Assembly: GCA_964435635.1 (NCBI GenBank)
Contig: CAYSZU010000001.1
Location: 450 to 64,449, forward strand
Direction of reading: 5' to 3'
Source of the DNA: an uncultured Muribaculaceae bacterium
Lineage (GTDB): Bacteria > Bacillota_I > Bacilli_A > RF39 > UBA660
Length of the DNA: 64,000 nucleotides
Positions 6,075-63,954 of the stretch are shown here, piece by piece (the first letter of the stretch is position 1; each line of letters begins with the position of its first letter). The translations under genes and the position numbers were made by a program. Under the pieces are notes generated by a model that saw only the letters and a program-made list of their open reading frames with translations, searched no databases and was not told where the DNA came from.

Positions 6075-6260
6075 TTACCAACTAGATTTTTTCACGCCAG
6101 GTATTTGACCTTTATTTGCTAATTCTCTAAAGCAAATACGGCATAATTTAAACTTGCGAAGTACGCCATGAGGACGTCCACATCTTTCGCAACGAGTATA
6201 TGCTCTAGTCTGAAACTTTGGCGTTCTTTGTTGTTTAACAACCATACTTTTCTTTGCCAT
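6075..6260 (-). CDS. rpsN: 30S ribosomal protein S14 type Z (zinc-binding)
   Basis: 61 aa with [20 protein letters not shown], a C4 zinc ribbon. Confidence 0.92.
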
Positions 6261-6278
6261 AAAATATTTCCTCCTCTA

Positions 6279-6818
6279 CTACTTCTTGAAAGGCATTTTA
6301 AATGCGCTCAATAAGCTTAATGCCTCTTCATTTGTTTTAGCGGTAGTTACAAAAATAATATCCATTCCTCTGATTTTTAAAACACTATCGTATTCTATCT
6401 CAGGGAATATCAATTGTTCTTTAATTCCTAAAGTGTAATTACCCTTACCGTCAAAAGATGTTTTTGGAATTCCTCTAAAATCTCTTACTCTAGGAAGAGC
6501 AACACGAACAAGTTTTTCCATAAAGTTATACATGTTTTCTCCACGTAGGGTAACTTTAGTTCCAATTAATTGTCCTTCTCTTAGTTTAAATCCAGCTATT
6601 GACTTACGAGCTTTGTTAACAACTGGTTTTTGACCAGAAATTATTTCTAAATCTTTAACTGCAGCCTCGATGAATTTTGAATCATGCGAAGCTTCACCAA
6701 CACCCATATTTATTACTATTTTATCTAGTTTTGGTACTTCTGTGATTGAACTATATTTAAATTCTTTCATCATTTTACCAACGATTTCTTTGTTATAAAG
6801 TTCTTTAAAATTACTCAT
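6279..6818 (-). CDS. rplE: 50S ribosomal protein L5
   Basis: 179 aa. Confidence 0.92.
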
Positions 6819-6829
6819 TCACATCACCC

Positions 6830-7141
6830 CTAACTAACTTTCTTTTCGGTTTTTTTAGCTACTGGTTTTTTAACAACCTTTGGTGCTTTTTCAACCTTCG
6901 CTTTTTTTTCTGGTTTAGTAGCATTTGCTATTACTTTAACGTTTGATGCATGAATTGGGGTTTCAATATCAAAGATACCTCCCTTTTCATTTGTGTTATT
7001 CGGCTTAGAATGCTTTTTCGCCATATTTAATCCTTCAATTAGAACCTTATTAATATCTCTAAAAGTTTTAACTACTTTTCCTTCTTTGCCTTTGTCTTTT
7101 CCAACAAGTATTTTAACTTGATCGCCAACTTTTATTTTCAT
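6830..7141 (-). CDS. rplX: 50S ribosomal protein L24
   Basis: 103 aa with a KOW motif and a lysine-rich tail. Confidence 0.9.
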   Translation of the reverse strand: MKIKVGDQVKILVGKDKGKEGKVVKTFRDINKVLIEGLNMAKKHSKPNNTNEKGGIFDIETPIHASNVKVIANATKPEKKAKVEKAPKVVKKPVAKKTEKKVS

Positions 7142-7149
7142 AAGACCTC

Positions 7150-7518
7150 CTATAACACTTCATTAGCTAAAGAAATAATTTTCATAAAATCTTTATCACG
7201 TAATTCTCTGGCCACTGGCCCTAATACTCTTGATCCAAGAGGACTTTTGTCTTCTTTGATTAAAACACAAGCATTATCATCGAATTTAATAAATGATCCG
7301 TCTTTTCTTCTCGCTCCTGAAACAGTTCTAACAATAACTGCTTTTACTACTTTACCTTTTTTTATATTGCTATTCGGAATAGCTTTTTTTACTGTTCCCA
7401 CAACGATATCACCGATATTGCCACTTTTAACAGTTGATCCACCTAATACTCTGATAACAAGTAATTCTCTTGCGCCAGAATTATCGGCAACTTTAAGTCT
7501 TGATTCTTGCATTACCAT
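7150..7518 (-). CDS. rplN: 50S ribosomal protein L14
   Basis: 122 aa. Confidence 0.93.
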
Positions 7519-7529
7519 AATGATACCTC

Positions 7530-7790
7530 CTAAAGGATTACAGCTTCGACAATTACTTCGATTAATTCAAAATGTTTAGATTTTGATAATGGTCTAGTAC
7601 TTGCAATTTTAACTGTATCTCCCTCTTTTGCTTTATTCATTTCATCGTGAGCTGCATACTTCTTTGAGTATTTTACTCTTTTGCCATAAAGACGACTTTT
7701 TCGATATGTTTCAACTAAAACAGATATCGTTTTGTCAGCTTTAGCGCTAACTACTTTTCCGATTAATTCCTGTCTCTTGGTTTCAGCCAT
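7530..7790 (-). CDS. rpsQ: 30S ribosomal protein S17
   Basis: 86 aa. Confidence 0.92.
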
Positions 7791-8008
7791 TATTGATCGC
7801 CTCCATTTTCTAATTCTCTTTCACGAATAATTGTTTTCATTCTTGCGACATCTTTACGTAATTCGCGCATTCTTGATGGCTTTTCTAGTTGCCCGGCCGC
7901 TTGTTTTAATCTTAAATCAAACAATTCTTTTTTAGATTCTGTAATTTTCTTATTTAGATCTTCAATTGTGAGAGATCTTAATTCTTTAATTTTCATTTGC
8001 GTCACCAC
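7790..8008 (-). CDS. rpmC: 50S ribosomal protein L29
   Basis: 72 aa. Confidence 0.88.
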
Positions 8009-12807: not shown

Positions 12808-12836
12808 ATTATAGCAAGTTATTTTTATAAAATCAA
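12808..12836 (-). promoter_or_regulatory. sigma-A-type promoter of the S10 operon
   Basis: Minus strand reads TTGATT-17 nt-TATAAT (the -35 is the rc of 12831-12836, the -10 the rc of 12808-12813). It is followed by a ~125-nt leader before rpsJ. Confidence 0.55.
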
Positions 12837-12840
12837 CCAT

Positions 12841-12887
12841 AATTTAAAGGAAATTAAAAGAATTGTTATCAGTATCAACAATTCTTT
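12841..12887 (-). terminator. rho-independent terminator after gpmI
   Basis: Perfect 11-bp inverted repeat AAAGAATTGTT...AACAATTCTTT at 12857-12887, followed on the minus strand by a T-rich tract. Confidence 0.6.
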
Positions 12888-12905: not shown

Positions 12906-14417
12906 TTATTCGTCTTCAACAAATAACAGTTCTGTTTCTCTCATCTCTTTAGGGATAGAAATATTCATATATTTTAAAATGGTTGGTGCGACCATTGTTA
13001 AATCACCGTTGGCTAATTCCAGTTTATTATCGGTAATAATAAAAGGAACAGGATTTGTAGTATGGGTTGTTATTGGCTTATTGTTTTCATCAATCATGTG
13101 CTCAGCGTTACCATGATCGCCTAGTATAACTAAAGTATAAAAATTGGTGGCTGCTTCTTCAACTAGCTTTCCTAGACAAATATCAACTGCTTGACAAGCT
13201 TTAATGGCCGCTTCCATATTACCAGTATGGCCAACCATATCGAGATTCGCATAATTAACTAAGATAAAATCAAAGTCACTTTCCATACATTTAATTGCCG
13301 TTTTAGTTACAGCAACAGCAGCCATTTCCGGTTTTAAATCAAATGTCGCTACTTCCGGAGAAGGAATATGAAAAGAAGAGCAACCTTGAAGGCGAATTTT
13401 CTGGCCACCATCAAAGAAATATGTAACGTGAGGGTATTTTTCGCTTTCCGCAATTCTTGCTTGTGTTAATCCTAATTGAGAAAGATAAATACCTAAACTA
13501 TTATTAACTTCTACATCTTCAAGAATATTTCTACAATTAAGTTTAGTATCTATTGGACACAATGAATATACTTTTAGATTTGGCAGTTGATAGTGATTAA
13601 ATTCATTAAAGTTTTCATCAGTCAAAGCCTGAATAATTTGCTTGGCGCGATCGCTGCGATAATTCATCCATAATAAACAATCACCATCTTTTATCACTTT
13701 ATCTGAGGCTAACGATATAGGTAAAAGAAATTCGTCGCTAATCTCTTGTGCGTACATTTTCCTGATTGTATCATTAATATTTAATGAAGTCGTGCCCATG
13801 TTCCTTGTAACTAGATCATAATACTTTTTAGTTCGATCCCAGTTTTTATCGCGATCCATGGCATAATAACGGCCACAAACCGAAACTATTTCGCCAACTC
13901 CTAAACCTTTTGTCACAAGAGTTAATTCTTTTATATATTCCATCGCAGCATTTGTTTTGGTATCGCGACCATCGGTAATAACATGAATATAAACTTTTGT
14001 CATTTGATCAAATACTAATTGTTGGAGCATAGCATATACAAAGTTGATATGCGAATGAACTCCGCCATCAGACATTAAGGCCATAATATGAATCGGCTTA
14101 TCATAGCTTTTGGCATAGTTAATCATAGCATTATAATCTTGATTATCTTTAAACTGGTGTTTATTAAAAGCTTCAGCTACTTGAAAGTAACCTTTTTTTA
14201 TTAAACGTCCCGCCCCAATAGTAAGATGGCCAATATCACTATTACCCATTTGACCTTTAGCTAAACCAATCGCTTTTTCTGAAGCTTTTAATAGACAATG
14301 GGGATATTCATCCCATAGTTTAATAAAATTATTCATTTTAGCGAGTTTTATTGCGTTGCCTTTTTCTTCTTCTCTGATTCCAAAGCCGTCTAAAATAATC
14401 ATCATTATTTTCTTCAT
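12906..14417 (-). CDS. gpmI: 2,3-bisphosphoglycerate-independent phosphoglycerate mutase
   Basis: 503 aa; the N-terminus MKKIMMIILDGFG with the metal-binding Asp and overall iPGM architecture. Confidence 0.9.
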   Translation of the reverse strand: MKKIMMIILDGFGIREEEKGNAIKLAKMNNFIKLWDEYPHCLLKASEKAIGLAKGQMGNSDIGHLTIGAGRLIKKGYFQVAEAFNKHQFKDNQDYNAMINYAKSYDKPIHIMALMSDGGVHSHINFVYAMLQQLVFDQMTKVYIHVITDGRDTKTNAAMEYIKELTLVTKGLGVGEIVSVCGRYYAMDRDKNWDRTKKYYDLVTRNMGTTSLNINDTIRKMYAQEISDEFLLPISLASDKVIKDGDCLLWMNYRSDRAKQIIQALTDENFNEFNHYQLPNLKVYSLCPIDTKLNCRNILEDVEVNNSLGIYLSQLGLTQARIAESEKYPHVTYFFDGGQKIRLQGCSSFHIPSPEVATFDLKPEMAAVAVTKTAIKCMESDFDFILVNYANLDMVGHTGNMEAAIKACQAVDICLGKLVEEAATNFYTLVILGDHGNAEHMIDENNKPITTHTTNPVPFIITDNKLELANGDLTMVAPTILKYMNISIPKEMRETELLFVEDE

Positions 14418-14473
14418 AGTTTCACCTTACCTAAATGTTACCACAACTAGTACTTAAATACAAAAACTATCTT

Positions 14474-15223
14474 TTAACTTTCTAGTTTTATTTTATCAAC
14501 AATCGTTGCCAAAAACTCAGAATTAGTTGGTTTTCCTTTTTCCATACTGATGCTGTGACCAAAAATTTCCTCCATTAAATCGTAGTTACCACGACTCCAA
14601 CTAACTTCTATCGCATGCCGAATAGCTCGTTCAACATTAGAAGAAGTAGTATTGTTCTTCGCTGCTATTTGGGGATAAAGATGTTTAGTAACGCTATCAA
14701 AAAGCCTTGGGTTTTCACATATTAAGCAAATGCTTTCTCTTAAATAACGATATCCTTTTATACTAGAGGGAACTCCTAAAGAGTGTAATAACTTGTTTAT
14801 AATTAATATTTCTTTTTGGGGCGAAGGTGGCCAATTAGGGATATGATCTTGAGCCAACTCAATTATTTTTCTTTCAAAGTCAGCAAAATCAAACGGCTTT
14901 AGAAGAAAATAACTTATTTTATATTCACTTAATTTTTTAAAAATATCAGCTTGATTAAAGCTGGTAATTATCATTACTTTTTTATTTATTTTTTGAGCCT
15001 TCATCGTTTCTAAGATAGCGATACCATCCTTTTTAGAGATTATAATATCCATTATAATAACATCATAGTTTAGTTGGTTACTTAGTATTAAGTTAAGTCC
15101 TTCCTCACCATTATACCCCTCGCCAGTTATTTGAATTAATTTATTAATATTAAAATATTCTTTGATCGTCTTAATTAATTTAATACTATCATCAATTATT
15201 AAAACTCTGACAGGCTTTTCCAT
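14474..15223 (-). CDS. spo0A: Spo0A-family response regulator (receiver + Spo0A C-terminal DNA-binding domain)
   Basis: The N-terminal receiver has LIIDDS...VIIMDIIISKKDG. The C-terminus, SVTKHLYPQIAAKNNTTSSNVERAIRHAIEVSWSRGN...KGKPTNSEFLATIVDKIKLE, is near-identical to the Spo0A 0A-box recognition helix region. Confidence 0.88.
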   Translation of the reverse strand: MEKPVRVLIIDDSIKLIKTIKEYFNINKLIQITGEGYNGEEGLNLILSNQLNYDVIIMDIIISKKDGIAILETMKAQKINKKVMIITSFNQADIFKKLSEYKISYFLLKPFDFADFERKIIELAQDHIPNWPPSPQKEILIINKLLHSLGVPSSIKGYRYLRESICLICENPRLFDSVTKHLYPQIAAKNNTTSSNVERAIRHAIEVSWSRGNYDLMEEIFGHSISMEKGKPTNSEFLATIVDKIKLES

Positions 15224-15281
15224 AGATAGCTCCTCGGTTAATTTAAAATTTGTTAGATTTTTTAAAGCAAAAAAAGACTGA

Positions 15282-16007
15282 TTATTTATTTAAAATATCA
15301 ATCATCTTTTGGACTTTGTTTACGTCGAGAGAAGCGGTCCCAATTAAGAAACCTTCTATTCCCTTTATTTTTAGTAATTCATCTATGTTTTCTTCATTTA
15401 TACTGCCGCCATATAATATAGGCAGATTTAATTTATAATAATTTAAAATTATAGTTTTAATAAAAGCAACTATTTCATCTATTTTACATACCTCTGGATT
15501 GTCATATGAATCAATTGCCCAGATTGGTTCATAAGCAATAATAACGTTCTTAATTTCTTCTCGCTTAAAGTCATTTAAAACGGTAGCAAGTTGTTTTTCT
15601 AACGCCATATAAATACCGTTTTTATTCTTTTGTTCAAGGGTCTCACCAACTATTAAAATAGGACGAATTCCAGATTTAAGAAGGTTGGCAACCTTTTCAG
15701 AAATGATTTTGCTATCTTCATTAAAAAATTCTCTTCTTTCACTATGGCCAACTAAAGCATATTTAACATCTAAGCTAGCTAACTGTTTAGCGCTTATTTC
15801 TCCAGTATATGATCCTTCCGGATATCTTGATAAGTCCTGGGCCCCTAAAAAAGAACGACAATCGCGGTAACAAGATAAGAAAGGACTTGATGGGCAAACA
15901 ATTAACTTAACTTTTGTTGGTAAGATTTTTTTTAATTGATGAGCATAATGTTGATGCTCTTCTAAACAAAAATTTTGTTTTAAATTAATAACAATATATC
16001 TATCCAT
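15282..16007 (-). CDS. tpiA: triosephosphate isomerase
   Basis: TIM signature AYEPIWAIDS and the GGS motif. The start is probably the Met at 16007, which overlaps the pgk stop. Confidence 0.88.
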   Translation of the reverse strand: MDRYIVINLKQNFCLEEHQHYAHQLKKILPTKVKLIVCPSSPFLSCYRDCRSFLGAQDLSRYPEGSYTGEISAKQLASLDVKYALVGHSERREFFNEDSKIISEKVANLLKSGIRPILIVGETLEQKNKNGIYMALEKQLATVLNDFKREEIKNVIIAYEPIWAIDSYDNPEVCKIDEIVAFIKTIILNYYKLNLPILYGGSINEENIDELLKIKGIEGFLIGTASLDVNKVQKMIDILNK

Positions 16008-17196
16008 TTTCGACCTCACTAATTGCATCTAAAGCAGGCAAATTGCCATCAACTATATAATCTAGTGTGGCTCCTCCCCCAGTTGATAAAAAGTCAAACT
16101 TTTTTGCTAAGCCAAATTGATGAGCCGCACTAACTGAGTCGCCACCACCAACAACTGAAGCTGCTTTGCTTTTTACTATAACGTTAAATAATTCTTTTGT
16201 GCCATTGGCAAATTTTGGTTCTTCATAAATCCCGGGAGTTCCATTAATAAATACCGTGGCAGATTTTTCAATAGCAGTTTGATATTTATTGATTGTTTTA
16301 AGACCAATGTCACAAATAATATCATCATCCATTAGTTGGTCGATATTTTGATAAGCAATATAGTTACTATCATATATTCGCCCAACAATAGCATCAAGTG
16401 GAAGCATAATTTTATCTTTATGATCAAGTAATAGTTTTCTTAACTTAGCTAAAGTTTCTTGGTCTTTTGTGGCAAGTGATTCACCAATGTTAAAGCCAAG
16501 AACTTTTAAACAACTATTAGCAATCCCTCCAGTTAACAATAAATGATCACAGTTTTCAACTAGTTTTTCAATCAATATAATTTTATCATCAACTTTTGCT
16601 CCGCCGATCATCATTGTAAATGGTCGTTTAGGATTAATGACCAATTTCTCTAAAGCTGCTAACTCAGCTTGCACTAGAAACCCAATACAATTTGGCAATT
16701 TTTTGGCAACACCATATGTTGATGCGTGGCGCCGATGCGCAGAGCCAAAAGCATCCATTACAAATATGTCGGCTAATCCCGCCCAATAATCTGCCAACTG
16801 CGGATCGTTTTTACTCTCTAAATTATGAGGAAAATCTTCAAAACGAGTGTTCTCTAAAAGGATAATTTCCCCAGGTAACATTTCTTTTATTTTTTGATAC
16901 AGCGCTATGTTTCTTGGTTGCTTAGCAAAAATTATTTTAGTGTTAATTTTTTGCCTTAAATATTCAGCTATTGGAGCTAACGAATATTTTTCTTTATCAG
17001 ACTCGCTATTTATCTTGCCTAAATGAGATAAAATTATTATCTTGCATGATTGGCTAATTAGATACTCAATTGTTTTAAAAGAAGAAATAATCTTATTATC
17101 GTCTAAGATTTTATCGTTTTTAATTGGAACATTATAATCACATCTGACTAGAACGGTTTTACCTTTTATATCGATGTCTTGAACTTTTTTATACAT
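16000..17196 (-). CDS. pgk: phosphoglycerate kinase
   Basis: The ATG at 17196 (MYKKVQDIDIKGK...) follows AGGTGG; the track start is an upstream GTG. PGK motifs are present. Confidence 0.9.
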   Translation of the reverse strand: MYKKVQDIDIKGKTVLVRCDYNVPIKNDKILDDNKIISSFKTIEYLISQSCKIIILSHLGKINSESDKEKYSLAPIAEYLRQKINTKIIFAKQPRNIALYQKIKEMLPGEIILLENTRFEDFPHNLESKNDPQLADYWAGLADIFVMDAFGSAHRRHASTYGVAKKLPNCIGFLVQAELAALEKLVINPKRPFTMMIGGAKVDDKIILIEKLVENCDHLLLTGGIANSCLKVLGFNIGESLATKDQETLAKLRKLLLDHKDKIMLPLDAIVGRIYDSNYIAYQNIDQLMDDDIICDIGLKTINKYQTAIEKSATVFINGTPGIYEEPKFANGTKELFNVIVKSKAASVVGGGDSVSAAHQFGLAKKFDFLSTGGGATLDYIVDGNLPALDAISEVENG

Positions 17197-17240
17197 AAAA
17201 ACCACCTATTCTTAATCCCATTATAAACCAAGCGACGACT

Positions 17241-17275
17241 TTAAACAAATAAAAATAGTGTCGCATGACACTATT
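17241..17275 (-). terminator. intercistronic hairpin / partial terminator between gap and pgk
   Basis: Perfect palindrome AATAGTGTC-GCAT-GACACTATT at 17254-17275, followed on the minus strand by TTTTTATTTGTTT. Confidence 0.55.
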
Positions 17276-18281
17276 TGATATTCATTAATACCTTCATTGT
17301 TCTAATCATTTGGGCCGTATAGCCTAATTCATTATCATACCAGGCGACGACTTTTATTAATTGCTTGTCATTGTTTTCAAGAATTGTTGTCAGTTGGAGA
17401 TCAACTAAAGCACCATACCTTTTACCTATTATATCACTTGAGACAATCGGATCGCTCGTTGCTTTTAGGACATCGGTTTGATTGTTTATGAATAAGTTGT
17501 TTATTTCTTCAACCGTCGTATTTCTTTTTGGTTCAATAGTTAAATCTATAACTGAACCATCACTAACTGGGACTCTAAAAGCGGTACCATCAAACCTCCC
17601 TAGCAATTCAGGAATTACTAGACCAATTGCACTTGCAGCACCGGTTGAAGAAGGAACAATGTTCATTGCTGCGGCTCGTCCCCGACGTGAATTAATTCCT
17701 TTTTTGTGAGCAATATCAAGTGTTTCTTGATCGTTAGTATAAGCATGAACAGTTGTCATAAAGCCTTTTTCGATCCCAATATTATCATTTAAAAGTTTAA
17801 CAACTGGTGCCAAACAATTTGTTGTACAACTCGCAGCGGAAATGATCTGCTCACTGCCATCTAAAATTTGTTCATTAACGCCATAGACTATGGTCTTCAT
17901 ATTTCCTTTTCCTGGCGCAGAGATTATTACCTTTTTTGCTCCGGCCGCAATATGCTTAAGTGCCCCTTCTTCATCAGTAAACACTCCGGTACACTCAAGA
18001 ACAATATCAACCGCTAGGTCTTGCCATGGTAAATTACGCGGATCTTTTTCAGCATATACTTTGATTTTCTTTTGGTTATTAATTACTAGGTAATCGTCTT
18101 GAAAACTAATTTTATCTTCATGAAAACTACGATGATTTGTATCATATTTTAATAAATAAGCAATACTTTCAGCATCGGTTAAATCATTGATAGCAACAAT
18201 ATCAAAATCCGTTGTTGTTATCATTTCCCGAAAAGCTAAGCGGCCGATGCGGCCAAATCCGTTTATAGCAACTTTTATCAT
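17271..18281 (-). CDS. gap: glyceraldehyde-3-phosphate dehydrogenase
   Basis: NGFGRIGR Rossmann motif and ASCTTNCLAP active-site Cys. Confidence 0.94.
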   Translation of the reverse strand: MIKVAINGFGRIGRLAFREMITTTDFDIVAINDLTDAESIAYLLKYDTNHRSFHEDKISFQDDYLVINNQKKIKVYAEKDPRNLPWQDLAVDIVLECTGVFTDEEGALKHIAAGAKKVIISAPGKGNMKTIVYGVNEQILDGSEQIISAASCTTNCLAPVVKLLNDNIGIEKGFMTTVHAYTNDQETLDIAHKKGINSRRGRAAAMNIVPSSTGAASAIGLVIPELLGRFDGTAFRVPVSDGSVIDLTIEPKRNTTVEEINNLFINNQTDVLKATSDPIVSSDIIGKRYGALVDLQLTTILENNDKQLIKVVAWYDNELGYTAQMIRTMKVLMNIK

Positions 18282-18290
18282 TTTTCTCTC

Positions 18291-19955
18291 CTATTCAAAC
18301 ATACTTCCGCCAATAAATTCTCTTAAAATCGAATCACTGCTTACATATTCCGAAGGAATTGGGAAGAAGTTTTTCAAAAAATTTATTAGCCTCTGAGCTT
18401 CACTATAGTATGGCGAAGCTATTGGGACGGAATATAATAAAGGTTCAGCATATACTTTTAGAACTCCTAGTTCAAAGACCAAAGAAGTGTTAATAACTTT
18501 ATCTGCTTGGTTCATGTAAGGAAAAATATATTGGCCTTCGCCTTTTCTAACGTTTTGCCAGTAAGCTATGGTGTCTGTAACGTTTGCTCCTCTTTGGCGA
18601 TTATCTCTAATCATTCGTCTTAACATTCTTAAATCAGTAGTCGATATATAATTGTGATGATCAATATTAAGGGGCATAAACGGACTAACATACAATTTAT
18701 ATTTTAGGCTAGCATCAATTTTCGGTGTTAGTTTATCGTTTACACAATGTAACCCCTCTAAAATAATTATCCCATTCTCGCTTAGTTTAATCGGTTTTCT
18801 CGTAAAAATTCTTGAACCACTAATAAAATCATATGTCGGAATCTGCACTTCTTGACCATCTTTTAAAGCTGTTAGCTGTTCATTTAACAACTCAACATCC
18901 ATTGCCTCCAAGCATTCATAGTTATACTTTCCTTCAGCGTCTTTTGGGGTATCCGAACGATTAACAAAATAATCATCAGTAGAAATAGTTAAAGGATCAT
19001 AACCATACGCTTTAAGGATTAATGATATTTTTTTGGCAGAAGTTGTCTTTCCTGAAGAAGAAGGCCCGGCAATCATAATATATTTGGCGTTTTTTGCCTT
19101 TACTTCATCAACAACATCAAGTAATGTTTTTTCGTATTTTATCTCATTTACCCGCATTAAATCTAATATTTTTGAATCTGAAACTAGTTTGTTTACGGCG
19201 GCAATATAAGGAATTTTTAATTGGTTTAACCAAATATTATTTTCTTCAAAGCATTTAATTACTTTTTCATATAATTGGCAATCGTTTTCTGCTAGTTCTT
19301 GAGAAAGCATTAAACCAACTTTGTTCTCCTGCAAATAGATTAAGTCAAAATTCTTTATACAACCAATACTATAAGGCATCTCAGTATAAAAATAATTTAA
19401 ATAGCTATTCATTTTATACATTGTTACTATTTCATTTGTGACATTATGAACATTAATCGATTTTTCTTGATCGTTTATTTGTTGGTAATAATTATATGCG
19501 TCCTTTTTGGAAATGTTAAGCTTGGCAATCTTAGTATCTTGATTAACCAAATCTACCATTTTAGTTTTTAATTCAGCAATCATTTTTTCAACAAAGGGAA
19601 CTTCGCTTATTATGGTAACATGAATCCCATTACCAATCGAATGATTAAAAATAATCTCGCAATCACTTTGATAATTGTTTTTATATAAATCTTTAATTGC
19701 TACTTCAAAAACAAATTTTAATCCCGACTTATATATTTTTGCACCATCAAGATCATCTTTACCAAAAAACTCTAAAACGGAATCTTTACTAATTCTACTA
19801 GTTAATGAAGTTATTTCGTAATTTACTTTAACACCAACAATTTCAAAAGGAAAATCATTTTGAAATTGTTTACTAATATCATAAAAAGTAACGTTTTTAT
19901 CTACTAAGATAGTTTTATCACCACATGTGACTTTAAATTGTTCACTCATATTCAT
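18291..19955 (-). CDS. uridine-kinase/phosphoribulokinase-family P-loop kinase fused to an N-terminal TGS-like domain (554 aa)
   Basis: The C-terminal half carries Walker A AGPSSSGKTT and the IIILEGLH...RDNRQRG udk-family motifs. The N-terminus FKVTCGDKTILVDKNVTFYDISK...VGVKVNY resembles a TGS beta-grasp. The stop TAG is embedded in the gap RBS (TAGGAGAG), so the two genes are translationally coupled. Confidence 0.7.
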   Translation of the reverse strand: MNMSEQFKVTCGDKTILVDKNVTFYDISKQFQNDFPFEIVGVKVNYEITSLTSRISKDSVLEFFGKDDLDGAKIYKSGLKFVFEVAIKDLYKNNYQSDCEIIFNHSIGNGIHVTIISEVPFVEKMIAELKTKMVDLVNQDTKIAKLNISKKDAYNYYQQINDQEKSINVHNVTNEIVTMYKMNSYLNYFYTEMPYSIGCIKNFDLIYLQENKVGLMLSQELAENDCQLYEKVIKCFEENNIWLNQLKIPYIAAVNKLVSDSKILDLMRVNEIKYEKTLLDVVDEVKAKNAKYIMIAGPSSSGKTTSAKKISLILKAYGYDPLTISTDDYFVNRSDTPKDAEGKYNYECLEAMDVELLNEQLTALKDGQEVQIPTYDFISGSRIFTRKPIKLSENGIIILEGLHCVNDKLTPKIDASLKYKLYVSPFMPLNIDHHNYISTTDLRMLRRMIRDNRQRGANVTDTIAYWQNVRKGEGQYIFPYMNQADKVINTSLVFELGVLKVYAEPLLYSVPIASPYYSEAQRLINFLKNFFPIPSEYVSSDSILREFIGGSMFE

Positions 19956-53497: not shown

Positions 53498-54841
53498 TTA
53501 TTTATTAATGTTTATTGTTATTTGATACGATGTTGCTAGATCAGCTTCGTCTATCGTTATCTTCGTGCCTTTTTCTAAAAGCGATGTAACAACACTACGA
53601 ACTTCTTTGATTGCCGAACCTAAATTTGCTTGTTGAACTTCTATAATGTTTGGTTTTAAACTTTCATCCAATTTAGCAATTTCAGTTACCGGGTCAACCG
53701 GCGCTATTATTGGTCTTTCCAATTCTGGAGGAATATCGGCTGTTGCTGGAGTGAAAAACCTGTTTTCAGAGCTTACCTTAGGGCCAGTATCCATTCGATT
53801 GAAAAAGCCACTTCCCGCTGCTTCTGGAGTTGAAACCGGTTCAATAAAGCCGGTGGCGTCATTAATAGTTTCATTACCTATTTTAAATGGAGCATCAAAC
53901 ACTTCAACTGGTGGTGGAGTTAACTCTACGGTTTCAGCTTGGGTTGCTTGTTCACTAAAATCCGCGTTGAAATCAAAAAATTTATTGTTTAAAGGCTTCT
54001 CTTCCTTAACTTCCCCAGTATTTAAAGGATTAACCGCCACAAATGGTTGATCAAATGGTTGCGGAACCGTTGGTAATGATTCACTATGTTCAGTCATTAA
54101 GCTTTCTGGCATCATCATGCTTTCAGCACTCGGCCTAATCTCAGGAGCATTTAAATCCATAGCTGTATTCCGAATATTATTTATATTTATTTGGCCATTA
54201 GTGGTTGGCGCCTCTTCAATTTCTTCAGCAACATATCCACCATTAACTTTTTTTAATTCCATATCAAGTTGTCTGACAGTCATTCTTTCATTAATTACTC
54301 GATCAAGCCATTCTATTTGTTCATCTTTATTAGAAAGAGTTAGTAAAGCTCGAGCGTGACGCTCAGATATTTTTCCTTCTAATAATGATTGCTGAACTTT
54401 ATCATCAAGGTTTAATAAACGTAATTTATTAGCGACTGATGATTGAGATAATCCCATTCTTTTAGCTAGCTGATCTTGATTTAAATATCCTTTATCAAGT
54501 AAGTTTTTATATGATCTAGCTTCTTCAATTGGGGTTAAATCTTTCCGTTGAACGTTTTCAACTAAAGCTATTTCAGCACTCGTATTATCATCAATATTAG
54601 AAATAACAGCAGGGACAGTTGTTAATCCAGCCATTGTTGCAGCTTTAAATCTTCGCTCCCCAGCGATTATCTCGAACTTGTCACCAAGCTTTCTTAAAAC
54701 TAGTGGTTGAATTATTCCATGCTCTTTGATTGAATCAGAAAGCTCTTTCAACCCTTGTTCATCAAATGATAAACGCGGTTGAAATCGATTTGGAATTATA
54801 TCCTCAAGATGGACTTGAAGAATCTCAGATTCTATTTTCAT
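53498..54841 (-). CDS. noc: Noc-like ParB-family protein with a long disordered insert (447 aa)
   Basis: IIPNRFQPR...GERRFKAA ParB box; HTH ...KISERHARAL. The C-terminal domain IKEVRSVVTSLLEKGTKITIDEADLATSYQITININK resembles the Noc/ParB C-terminal domain. It is adjacent to rsmG, as Noc is in Bacilli and Clostridia. Confidence 0.8.
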   Translation of the reverse strand: MKIESEILQVHLEDIIPNRFQPRLSFDEQGLKELSDSIKEHGIIQPLVLRKLGDKFEIIAGERRFKAATMAGLTTVPAVISNIDDNTSAEIALVENVQRKDLTPIEEARSYKNLLDKGYLNQDQLAKRMGLSQSSVANKLRLLNLDDKVQQSLLEGKISERHARALLTLSNKDEQIEWLDRVINERMTVRQLDMELKKVNGGYVAEEIEEAPTTNGQININNIRNTAMDLNAPEIRPSAESMMMPESLMTEHSESLPTVPQPFDQPFVAVNPLNTGEVKEEKPLNNKFFDFNADFSEQATQAETVELTPPPVEVFDAPFKIGNETINDATGFIEPVSTPEAAGSGFFNRMDTGPKVSSENRFFTPATADIPPELERPIIAPVDPVTEIAKLDESLKPNIIEVQQANLGSAIKEVRSVVTSLLEKGTKITIDEADLATSYQITININK

Positions 54842-63868: not shown

Positions 63869-63954
63869 AAAAAAAATAGTAATCGACAAAATTCGACATA
63901 TTTCGACATTCTTTTTTGATATAAGGTTAAAAATTTATTAAGGAGGAATTTTTT

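Follow-up and report, generated by a model that had tools for sequence, protein, structure and literature searches.

In gut Firmicutes, spo0A serves as the marker gene from which the potential to sporulate is judged, and, to our knowledge, its wiring, which comprises the recN-spoIVB context, feedback through sigma-H and 0A boxes, and the phosphorelay, is treated as near-universal. The stretch of DNA analysed here (hereafter the window) consists of 64,000 nucleotides (nt) of contig CAYSZU010000001.1 from an uncultured bacterium (GenBank assembly GCA_964435635.1), and the gene-content results given below cover this 64-kb window only. Its minus strand carries a spo0A gene that is placed within a glycolytic gene cluster, between the genes for triose-phosphate isomerase (tpiA) and cofactor-independent phosphoglycerate mutase (gpmI), a location that turns out to be shared by a large clade of uncultured relatives.

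The spo0A gene and its product

The gene is a single open reading frame (ORF) of 249 amino acids (aa), for which an earlier note, made from the letters of this DNA, had proposed a receiver domain followed by the Spo0A DNA-binding domain (Table 1). Profile searches agree with that proposal, and the peptides quoted in its support are present. Response_reg (PF00072) matches residues 7-119 (E 1.9e-17, 63.9 bits), Spo0A_C (PF08769; cut-off 25 bits) matches residues 142-245 over its whole length (model positions 1-104 of 104, E 1.5e-40, 137.8 bits), and the NCBIfam Spo0A equivalog TIGR02875 (cut-off 200 bits) reaches 241.1 bits, with residues 4-248 on model positions 2-258 of 262. Residues 141-248 align without gaps to the C-terminal domain (C-domain) of Bacillus subtilis Spo0A (PDB 1LQ1, E 7e-38); the alignment with the Geobacillus stearothermophilus C-domain (1FC3, E ~1e-37) is also gapless, and the best structural matches of the receiver found by sequence alignment are the Spo0A receivers 9PHZ, 5WQ0 and 1DZ3. 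The AlphaFold model (mean predicted local distance difference test score, pLDDT, 82.9) displays a (beta-alpha)5 receiver and a six-helix C-domain, and its comparison with 1FC3/1LQ1 and 5WQ0/1QMP gives target-normalised template-modelling (TM) scores of 0.88-0.92 and root-mean-square deviations of 1.4-2.0 A. The window protein has, in short, the same two domains as the Spo0A proteins of B. subtilis and G. stearothermophilus (1LQ1, 1FC3, 1QMP, 9PHZ), with a C-domain that is about 52-54% identical to theirs (TM about 0.9).

The receiver pocket (D11, D12, D59, T87 and K109) is intact, as the earlier note had claimed, and, with all five catalytic residues kept, the window Spo0A is not itself a pseudo-receiver. 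Along with this Asp-Asp/Asp/Thr/Lys pocket, the recognition helix VERAIRHAIEV and the KPTNSEF motif of the B. subtilis-type protein are kept, and E198, R199 and R202 correspond to E213, R214 and R217 of the B. subtilis recognition helix, residues that reportedly take part in reading the 0A box. Compared with the B. subtilis protein, the window Spo0A is shorter (249 versus 267 aa), has a short linker, carries Asn196 at the position of R211 (offset +15 in the 1LQ1 alignment), and has a Ser (P63S) in place of the conserved Pro (P60 in B. subtilis) that lies four residues past the phospho-accepting D59. No second Spo0A-like sequence is found within the window. The ORF is the orthologous spo0A of an uncultured Bacilli lineage of low guanine-plus-cytosine (GC) content, and it is probably the only copy of that lineage.

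The glycolytic cluster and its transcription signals

The order of genes along the minus strand is whiA, a PRK/uridine-kinase-like gene, gap, pgk, tpiA, spo0A, gpmI and rpsJ, the last of these opening the S10/spc ribosomal operon. The co-directional gap-pgk-tpiA-pgm genes, with operon-like spacing, form a cluster of the Firmicute gapA type, in which the start of tpiA overlaps the stop of pgk by 8 nt; the same overlap appears in the gene call of contig L006 (tpiA 241 aa). As had been noted earlier, spo0A is on the same strand as its neighbours and is separated from tpiA and gpmI by 58 and 56 nt, spacer lengths that proved exact. Both spacers fold no better than their shuffles (z +0.41 and z -0.58, respectively), and terminator and promoter scans reveal no terminator-like or consensus-like promoter site in either of them, in agreement with the claim that no strong terminator stands on either side. 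In addition, the 58-nt spacer and the 200 nt that precede the window spo0A contain no TATAAT and no exact or tandem copy of the 0A box, either as TGTCGAA or as its reverse complement, TTCGACA. Autoregulation of its own promoter through 0A boxes, recognisable in most clade relatives and in canonical loci, is not recognisable at this gene.

Since no recognisable promoter or terminator lies on either side of spo0A, its co-transcription with tpiA and gpmI, judged probable in the earlier note, is the most economical reading, and the short gaps and good ribosome-binding sites point in the same direction. In the simplest reading of these signals, pgk-tpiA-spo0A-gpmI would form one unit that is also fed by read-through from gap. 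Transcription might start at a candidate promoter just before pgk, which was missed by the promoter scan because its -35 matches at three of six positions, and might end at the hairpin behind gpmI, whose fold is equalled by none of 200 shuffles. The earlier note was also right that eno does not follow gpmI, the place being taken by rpsJ and the S10 operon.

The B. subtilis counterpart is reported to be a central glycolytic operon, cggR-gapA-pgk-tpiA-pgm-eno, with an internal promoter before pgk (Ludwig et al. 2001). The window shares with it the order gap-pgk-tpiA-pgm, a hairpin after gap and a TATAAT site before pgk, but differs in the lack of cggR and eno, in the insertion of spo0A between tpiA and gpmI, and in the surrounding genes, with the PRK-like gene and whiA upstream and the S10 operon downstream. 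The PRK-like gene stands upstream of gap where cggR does not, and neither eno nor a SorC/DeoR-type gene is present among the window ORFs read. At the right end of the window, rpmH-rnpA-yidC-jag-mnmE-mnmG lie on one strand and dnaA-dnaN on the other, and the GC skew turns near 60-62 kb; this gene set and the skew turn place the glycolytic cluster about 47 kb from oriC.

Table 1. Coordinates of the features discussed, in the window and in related metagenomic loci
Feature	Sequence	Position	Strand	Remarks
whiA	window	20991-20014	-	
PRK/uridine-kinase-like gene, 554 aa	window	18291..19955	-	Pfam PRK; same position in clade relatives
gap (glyceraldehyde-3-phosphate dehydrogenase)	window	17271..18281	-	Pfam Gp_dh_N and Gp_dh_C
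Terminator/attenuator-like hairpin after gap	window	17253..17276	-	10-bp stem and U tract; spacer fold -19.2 kcal/mol, z -2.4
Candidate pgk promoter, TTGTTT-17 nt-TATAAT	window	17220..17248	-	24 nt before pgk ATG; consensus match with perfect -10, weak -35
pgk (phosphoglycerate kinase)	window	16000..17196/17205	-	Pfam PGK, E 7e-123; start inferred from L091 orthologue
tpiA (triose-phosphate isomerase)	window	15282..16007/16028	-	Pfam TIM, E 3e-65
tpiA-spo0A spacer, 58 nt	window	15224..15281	-	GAGGAG ribosome-binding site
spo0A, 249 aa	window	14474..15223	-	Receiver ~1-125, disordered linker 127-135, Spo0A_C DNA-binding domain ~140-249; from Pfam, NCBIfam, 1LQ1 alignment and AlphaFold model
spo0A-gpmI spacer, 56 nt	window	14418..14473	-	AAGGTGA ribosome-binding site
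gpmI (cofactor-independent phosphoglycerate mutase)	window	12906..14417	-	NCBIfam TIGR01307, 563 bits; last gene of the inferred unit
Likely operon terminator	window	12857..12887	-	12-bp AT-rich hairpin, then UUUUAAUUU, after gpmI stop; fold z -3.63
S10-operon promoter-like site, TTGATT-17-TATAAT	window	12808..12836	-	TG extension; from promoter scan
Triple direct 0A box, ATCGACAaaaTTCGACAtatTTCGACA	window	63882..63908	+	10-bp period; candidate operator between dnaN and next gene
Extended -10, TGaTATAAG	window	63917-63925	+	Downstream of triple box
Ribosome-binding site, AAGGAGG	window	63940-46	+	Downstream of triple box
TTG start	window	63954	+	Downstream of triple box
spo0A, 188 aa	L092	7380-7946		In-frame deletion of receiver core; Spo0A_C intact
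spo0A	L050	7998-8759		Ser for phospho-Asp; Spo0A_C intact
spo0A	L093	7167-7952		Asn-Asp for Asp-Asp, conserved Lys lost; Spo0A_C intact

Synteny across the clade

The closest Spo0A homologues in a collection of 5.8 billion proteins are 50-54% identical, and the first three homologue contigs inspected all carry PRK-gap-pgk-(lipid-synthesis genes)-tpiA-spo0A. To set this order in a wider frame, 80 metagenomic Spo0A loci of 16 kb were gathered, and the neighbour proteins of the window were compared with 90 loci by tblastn. Where Spo0A is at least 44% identical to that of the window, pgk and/or tpiA lie directly upstream on the same strand in nearly every locus, often with gpmI or rpsJ-rplC downstream. 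At 43% identity or less there is no glycolytic context, the three exceptions being L039 and L041 (about 40%) and L050 (45%, a figure that covers just the C-terminal part). A neighbour-joining tree separates the glycolytic-context Spo0A proteins, all of which share a single clade, from the canonical ones, which form another; placed within the glycolytic clade are also seven loci in which no glycolytic genes were detected, namely L022 and L033, which have other upstream genes, L088, and others on short contigs.

In the non-glycolytic loci, the genes upstream of spo0A encode proteins of about 150, 565 and 430 aa. Six of the ten upstream proteins scanned from these other loci are SpoIVB peptidases of the S55 type (Peptidase_S55, E ~1e-86), and one scanned protein of 576 aa is RecN-like. 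By these matches, the loci of the other clade are the canonical argR-recN-spoIVB-spo0A arrangement, and the earlier statement that canonical spo0A adjoins spoIVB and recN is seen in them directly. The window gene does not have this context, its flanks being tpiA and gpmI. The arrangement had been described as unusual, which is correct as far as the non-canonical place is concerned, but it is not peculiar to this genome, since the glycolytic-context synteny extends over the clade and is seen in about 30 independent metagenomic loci. Full-text searches of the literature, of incomplete coverage and no proof of novelty, returned no description of spo0A within a glycolytic cluster; this location, together with the graded loss of insulation and receiver and the orphan triple operator described below, appears not to have been described before.

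Many relatives of the window SecA and GpmI are found at 57-86% identity. A search of genome contigs with the window Spo0A returned only an unrelated Flavobacterium receiver, and the exact protein, which was not among the hits of the homology search (best hit 54%), is present on three short Logan contigs (L006-L008); closer Spo0A relatives were found through the neighbours of GpmI. The first of these, L091 (GpmI 78% identical), has the order ftsX-M23-whiA-PRK-gap-pgk, then a 52-aa ORF with no tpiA, then spo0A (249 aa), gpmI and rpsJ. L092 (GpmI 74%) has the same order, with a Spo0A of 188 aa that amounts to the C-domain alone, and L093 and L094 (GpmI 62%) carry gap-[mrnC-rlmB-sigma factor]-pgk-tpiA-spo0A-gpmI. 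L050, L039 and L041 share the long-branch group of window relatives.

Several variations of gene content accompany this synteny. tpiA is not found between pgk and spo0A in L091 (6925-7192), L092 (7271-7380), L039, L041 and L050, and in L050 a helix-turn-helix/membrane protein gene stands where tpiA would be expected. The genes inserted between gap and pgk in L093 (2705-4362) and L094 (1230-2887) encode mini-RNase III (mrnC), an rlmB-like SpoU methylase and a 202-aa sigma-70 region-2 protein, which, by analogy with the B. subtilis order cysS-mrnC-rlmB-yacP-sigH, may be SigH and would then lie 3 kb from spo0A. In L033, the glycolytic genes are replaced by a gene for a 593-aa hybrid histidine-kinase/receiver protein (HATPase_c and Response_reg; 6098-7879) directly upstream of spo0A, possibly the cognate kinase of the glycolytic-context Spo0A clade. 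In the PRK-like protein, of about 550 aa, the PRK/uridine-kinase domain is C-terminal, and about 280 residues at the N-terminus form an extension that matches no Pfam model; the gene is kept between whiA and gap, the position of cggR in Bacillus, across the clade (L002, L009, L018, L025, L029, L032, L050 and L091-L093).

Insulation and autoregulation of spo0A

In B. subtilis, spo0A is expressed from the promoters Pv and Ps, with 0A boxes and positive feedback. A comparable design is apparent in most clade relatives, where one to three copies of TTCGACA lie upstream of spo0A and a strong TATAAT follows 40-70 nt further downstream. At least one exact TTCGACA is found within 200 nt upstream of the gene in 23 of the 34 glycolytic-context loci, a set that includes three copies of the window itself, and several others have copies with one mismatch. 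Across 27 loci, 23 of 39 exact boxes fall within the 1.65% of sequence made up by these 200-nt upstream stretches, an enrichment of about 85-fold. A terminator-like hairpin separates the upstream gene from spo0A in 20 of these 27 loci, and another directly follows spo0A in about 14 of them. Judged by these signals, spo0A is in most clade members an insulated, autoregulated unit that merely adjoins the glycolytic genes, so that adjacency alone does not mean regulatory coupling. The idea, put forward in the earlier note, that physical proximity constitutes a regulatory link between Spo0A and glycolysis is not supported by this comparison, given that spo0A is a separate unit in most loci and that no 0A box precedes the glycolytic genes in the 27 loci.

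In the window and in L091, by contrast, neither a 0A box, nor TATAAT, nor a hairpin is present on either side of spo0A, so the window gene differs from B. subtilis-type spo0A both in its neighbours and in having no 0A boxes or promoter of its own. L092 has no 0A box and no downstream hairpin at spo0A. As the signals are present in most relatives and missing from the window and L091, the operon fusion appears to be derived in this small lineage.

An additional arrangement was observed in L018 (~7915-7945), L026 (~2320-2345), L032 (~7890-7930) and L034, where the preceding gene ends in a terminator hairpin whose loop contains a 0A box (e.g., agacaagTTCGACAaaacttgtcc followed by a T-run); in that position, Spo0A binding and termination could interfere with each other.

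Protein evolution and loss of the receiver

The Spo0A proteins of the window and L091 share 56% identity, at a nonsynonymous divergence (dN) of 0.31, while ten neighbouring genes are 72-90% identical, or 99% in the case of rpsJ, with dN of 0.004-0.20. The nonsynonymous divergence of Spo0A is thus 1.6-5 times that of the enzymes and of most ribosomal proteins around it; these ratios, and those of identity, are given in place of a proper omega because synonymous divergence (dS) is saturated. A second measure was based on 50 ordinary clade members, among which 106 alignment columns reach a conservation of 90% or more; the members themselves deviate at 2.4 of these positions on average and at 12 at most. 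The window Spo0A deviates at 26 of the 106 (8 of 29 in the receiver, 17 of 76 in the C-domain), L091 also at 26, L050 at 22, L039 and L041 at 29 and 30, L093 at 34 and L092 at 48.

In several sisters this divergence reaches the receiver itself. L092, L050 and L093 are pseudo-receivers by their substitutions or deletion (Table 1), and L039 and L041, where the second Asp of the receiver is lost, are so in part; the window protein is not. In B. subtilis, the sad67 allele, an in-frame deletion within the Spo0A receiver, acts independently of phosphorylation, and L092 with its receiver-core deletion, L050 with Ser for the phospho-Asp and L093 without the Lys can be viewed as natural counterparts of such variants, whereas the window Spo0A keeps every catalytic residue. 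Nevertheless, seven lineages that diverged deeply enough to saturate synonymous sites all retain an undisrupted spo0A ORF, and the core of the C-domain (IKGY.Y..E, VE.AIR.AIE and KPTNSEF) is kept even in Spo0A that has no receiver. The fast evolution of the protein, in combination with receiver loss in sisters, points to reductive rewiring rather than to an evolved link between sporulation and glycolysis.

Candidate targets of Spo0A

The window contains eight exact 0A boxes against 6.3 expected, i.e., a number at chance level, and none of them lies in the whiA-gpmI region. Likewise, across the 27 related loci, gap, pgk, tpiA, gpmI and the PRK-like gene all lack a 0A box in front of them, so there is no support for regulation of glycolysis by Spo0A. 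One site stands apart from this background. Between dnaN and the next gene, on the plus strand, three direct 0A boxes follow each other with a 10-bp period, forming the sole tandem in the window, where first-order Markov simulations predict 0.02 per window. All 10 other tandems in 1.02 Mb of related loci are directly upstream of spo0A genes. The triple box is a candidate Spo0A target and overlaps the -35/spacer region of an extended -10 promoter; repression would be the simplest guess, although activation of the spoIIG type is also possible.

Origin and role of the window spo0A

The account that we favour, with moderate confidence, is that the window carries a rewired, still functional Spo0A that has been captured by a glycolytic operon in a lineage shedding its sporulation wiring. 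According to this account, the clade ancestor would have moved spo0A from a recN-spoIVB-spo0A locus to a place downstream of pgk-tpiA and near oriC. Most descendants would have retained the classical positive-feedback design, with an upstream terminator, one to three TTCGACA boxes, a strong TATAAT, spo0A and often a further terminator, whereas in the sub-lineage of the window and L091 the insulating and autoregulatory elements would have been deleted, until the window spacers were reduced to their present length. With these elements gone, spo0A is most likely the third cistron of a pgk-tpiA-spo0A-gpmI mRNA, which would run from the promoter just before pgk, with a contribution of gap read-through, to the gpmI hairpin. 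Spo0A would then be made in step with the growth-phase expression of glycolysis and not through a self-amplifying switch of stationary phase. Because the pocket, the Spo0A_C fold and E198, R199 and R202 are kept, the sequence suggests that the protein could still be phosphorylated and bind DNA resembling the 0A box. The window Spo0A would be under relaxed or altered constraint, in line with sister receivers that are predicted to be non-phosphorylatable or are deleted, and relaxed constraint on the receiver would fit a loss of kinase input and of switch-like behaviour. The lineage would in this way shed the wiring of the sporulation switch while keeping Spo0A as an ordinary DNA-binding regulator, whose binding function would still be under selection and for which the triple 0A box may be one target.

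Several observations weigh against this account. With regard to transcription, a weak internal promoter is possible, either within the tpiA 3' end or within the 58-nt spacer, and consensus promoter scans perform no better than shuffles in this AT-rich DNA. With regard to the protein, N196 occupies the position of R211, and a single R211E change is sporulation-null in B. subtilis (PMC13577027), so that DNA binding may be weakened; P63S and 24 further departures from the conserved columns could signal decay instead of rewiring. The rate comparison is affected by the fact that dS between the window and L091 is saturated or undefined. As for the target, the gene behind the triple box, which begins MNNYEICQETLYLEA, runs off the window end. 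Finally, the gene content considered is that of the window, whose roughly 60 genes include no histidine kinase, sigma factor or sporulation-specific gene.

It could be argued that spo0A is a decaying relic, i.e., a barely functional or non-functional leftover of lost sporulation whose inclusion in an operon is a by-product of deletional genome shrinkage. The loss of promoter, 0A boxes and terminators, the elevated nonsynonymous divergence, the 26 changed positions (the R211 equivalent among them), the sisters with a deleted receiver (L092), with phospho-Asp replaced by Ser (L050) or with Lys and Asp lost (L093), and the absence of sporulation-specific genes from the window would all be expected of such a relic. 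What makes it rather unlikely in our view is the persistence of the gene, since a neutral ORF of 750 nt would not survive intact in seven lineages whose synonymous divergence is saturated. Moreover, with a dS above about 1.4 in the neighbours, a dN of 0.31 implies that omega is far below 1; the DNA-binding core (IKGY.Y, VERAIRHAIE, KPTNSEF) outlasts the receiver, and a perfect triple 0A box persists in the window genome.

The reading of the earlier note, in which a spore-former would use a functional master switch and its co-transcription with glycolytic genes would adaptively tie the sporulation decision to glycolytic flux, appears improbable. It draws on the intact acid pocket and DNA-binding domain, on the tight operon-like packing, and on gene-content predictions that the reduced orders RF39, RFN20 (families CAG-631/449) and ML615J-28 may still form spores (PMC10868615). 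However, most clade members combine the same neighbours with an insulated, autoregulated spo0A, which makes adjacency an ancestral trait rather than a means of coupling, and in none of the 27 loci do 0A boxes stand upstream of glycolytic genes. Expression from a housekeeping operon would, in addition, deprive the classical switch of the positive feedback that it requires, and the protein is fast-evolving, with Asn at the R211 position.

Very little speaks for a divergent paralogue, in which case the true spo0A would lie elsewhere in a canonical locus and the window copy would be a duplicated regulator with another role. The long branch and the unusual context are compatible with it, and paralogues, confined to Clostridiales, do occur in about 9% of Spo0A-positive genomes (Galperin et al., bioRxiv 10.1101/2022.02.25.481979). 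The window protein nonetheless groups with the positional orthologues of the clade in the tree, is the equivalent of the gene in the same place in L091, L092 and L093, exceeds the TIGR02875 equivalog cut-off and has no second copy beside it in the window; in the loci compared there is one Spo0A match per 16 kb, the best match per locus having been kept. A role of Spo0A as the transcriptional regulator of the glycolytic cluster in place of the missing CggR, suggested by the PRK-like gene standing where cggR is not found and by the position of a regulator within the operon that it would control, is scarcely credible and was rejected, as exact and tandem 0A boxes are absent from the upstream sides of the glycolytic genes (gap, pgk, tpiA, gpmI) and of the PRK-like gene, both in the window and in the 27 related loci.

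The account of a rewired, operon-borne Spo0A can be set beside what surveys report of related bacteria. The spore-forming Erysipelotrichia Turicibacter sanguinis, [Clostridium] innocuum and Erysipelatoclostridium ramosum, together with the reduced orders RF39, RFN20, ML615J-28 and Anaeroplasmataceae, are Bacilli-related lineages among which the window probably has its taxonomic neighbourhood. They have reduced sporulation gene sets in which spo0A is kept and Spo0F and Spo0B are missing (PMC13492147, PMC10868615, bioRxiv 10.1101/2022.02.25.481979), and repeated, independent losses of sporulation, often with retention of spo0A, have been described in related reduced Bacilli orders (PMC10868615; Galperin et al., bioRxiv 10.1101/2022.02.25.481979). 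This pattern is compatible with the favoured account. A bolder version, which we advance only tentatively and regard as a minority possibility, would have Spo0A exapted in a reductive Bacilli branch that is losing or has lost endospores: deprived of its autoregulatory promoter and expressed constitutively from the glycolytic operon, it would serve in a post-sporulation role solely as a DNA-binding regulator of a small, origin-proximal set of targets exemplified by the triple box, with natural sad67-like, phosphorylation-independent variants in sister lineages that have lost a working receiver.

Other features of the window

Beyond the glycolytic cluster, prfB (41360 to ~42465, minus strand) has a programmed +1 frameshift of the classical type, at the site CTT TGA C behind a GGAGG, and because of this frameshift the ORF list displays only the downstream 284 aa. 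Two ParB-family genes are present, one in a parA-parB pair (37056-35388, minus strand) and the other beside rsmG (53498-54841, minus strand); the latter encodes a ParB/Noc-like protein of 447 aa whose C-terminal half, of about 250 aa, has no Pfam match. No Rfam match at gathering thresholds was obtained in the 64 kb (no tRNA, ribosomal-protein leader or riboswitch), despite the S10/spc operon and many housekeeping genes.

Implications for the evolution of Spo0A

A large uncultured clade keeps spo0A at a non-canonical but conserved site, the glycolytic cluster near oriC. Within that clade, the gene forms a graded series, from an insulated and autoregulated gene, through what appears to be a promoter-less operon passenger in the window, to variants that have no receiver or are predicted to be non-phosphorylatable. 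The triple 0A box by dnaN provides a concrete candidate target in this setting. If this series is real, it would preserve in nature the stages by which a developmental master switch is taken apart or put to new use as genomes shrink towards Mollicutes-like lifestyles, and it would also caution that finding spo0A in a metagenome-assembled genome is a poor guide to spore formation.

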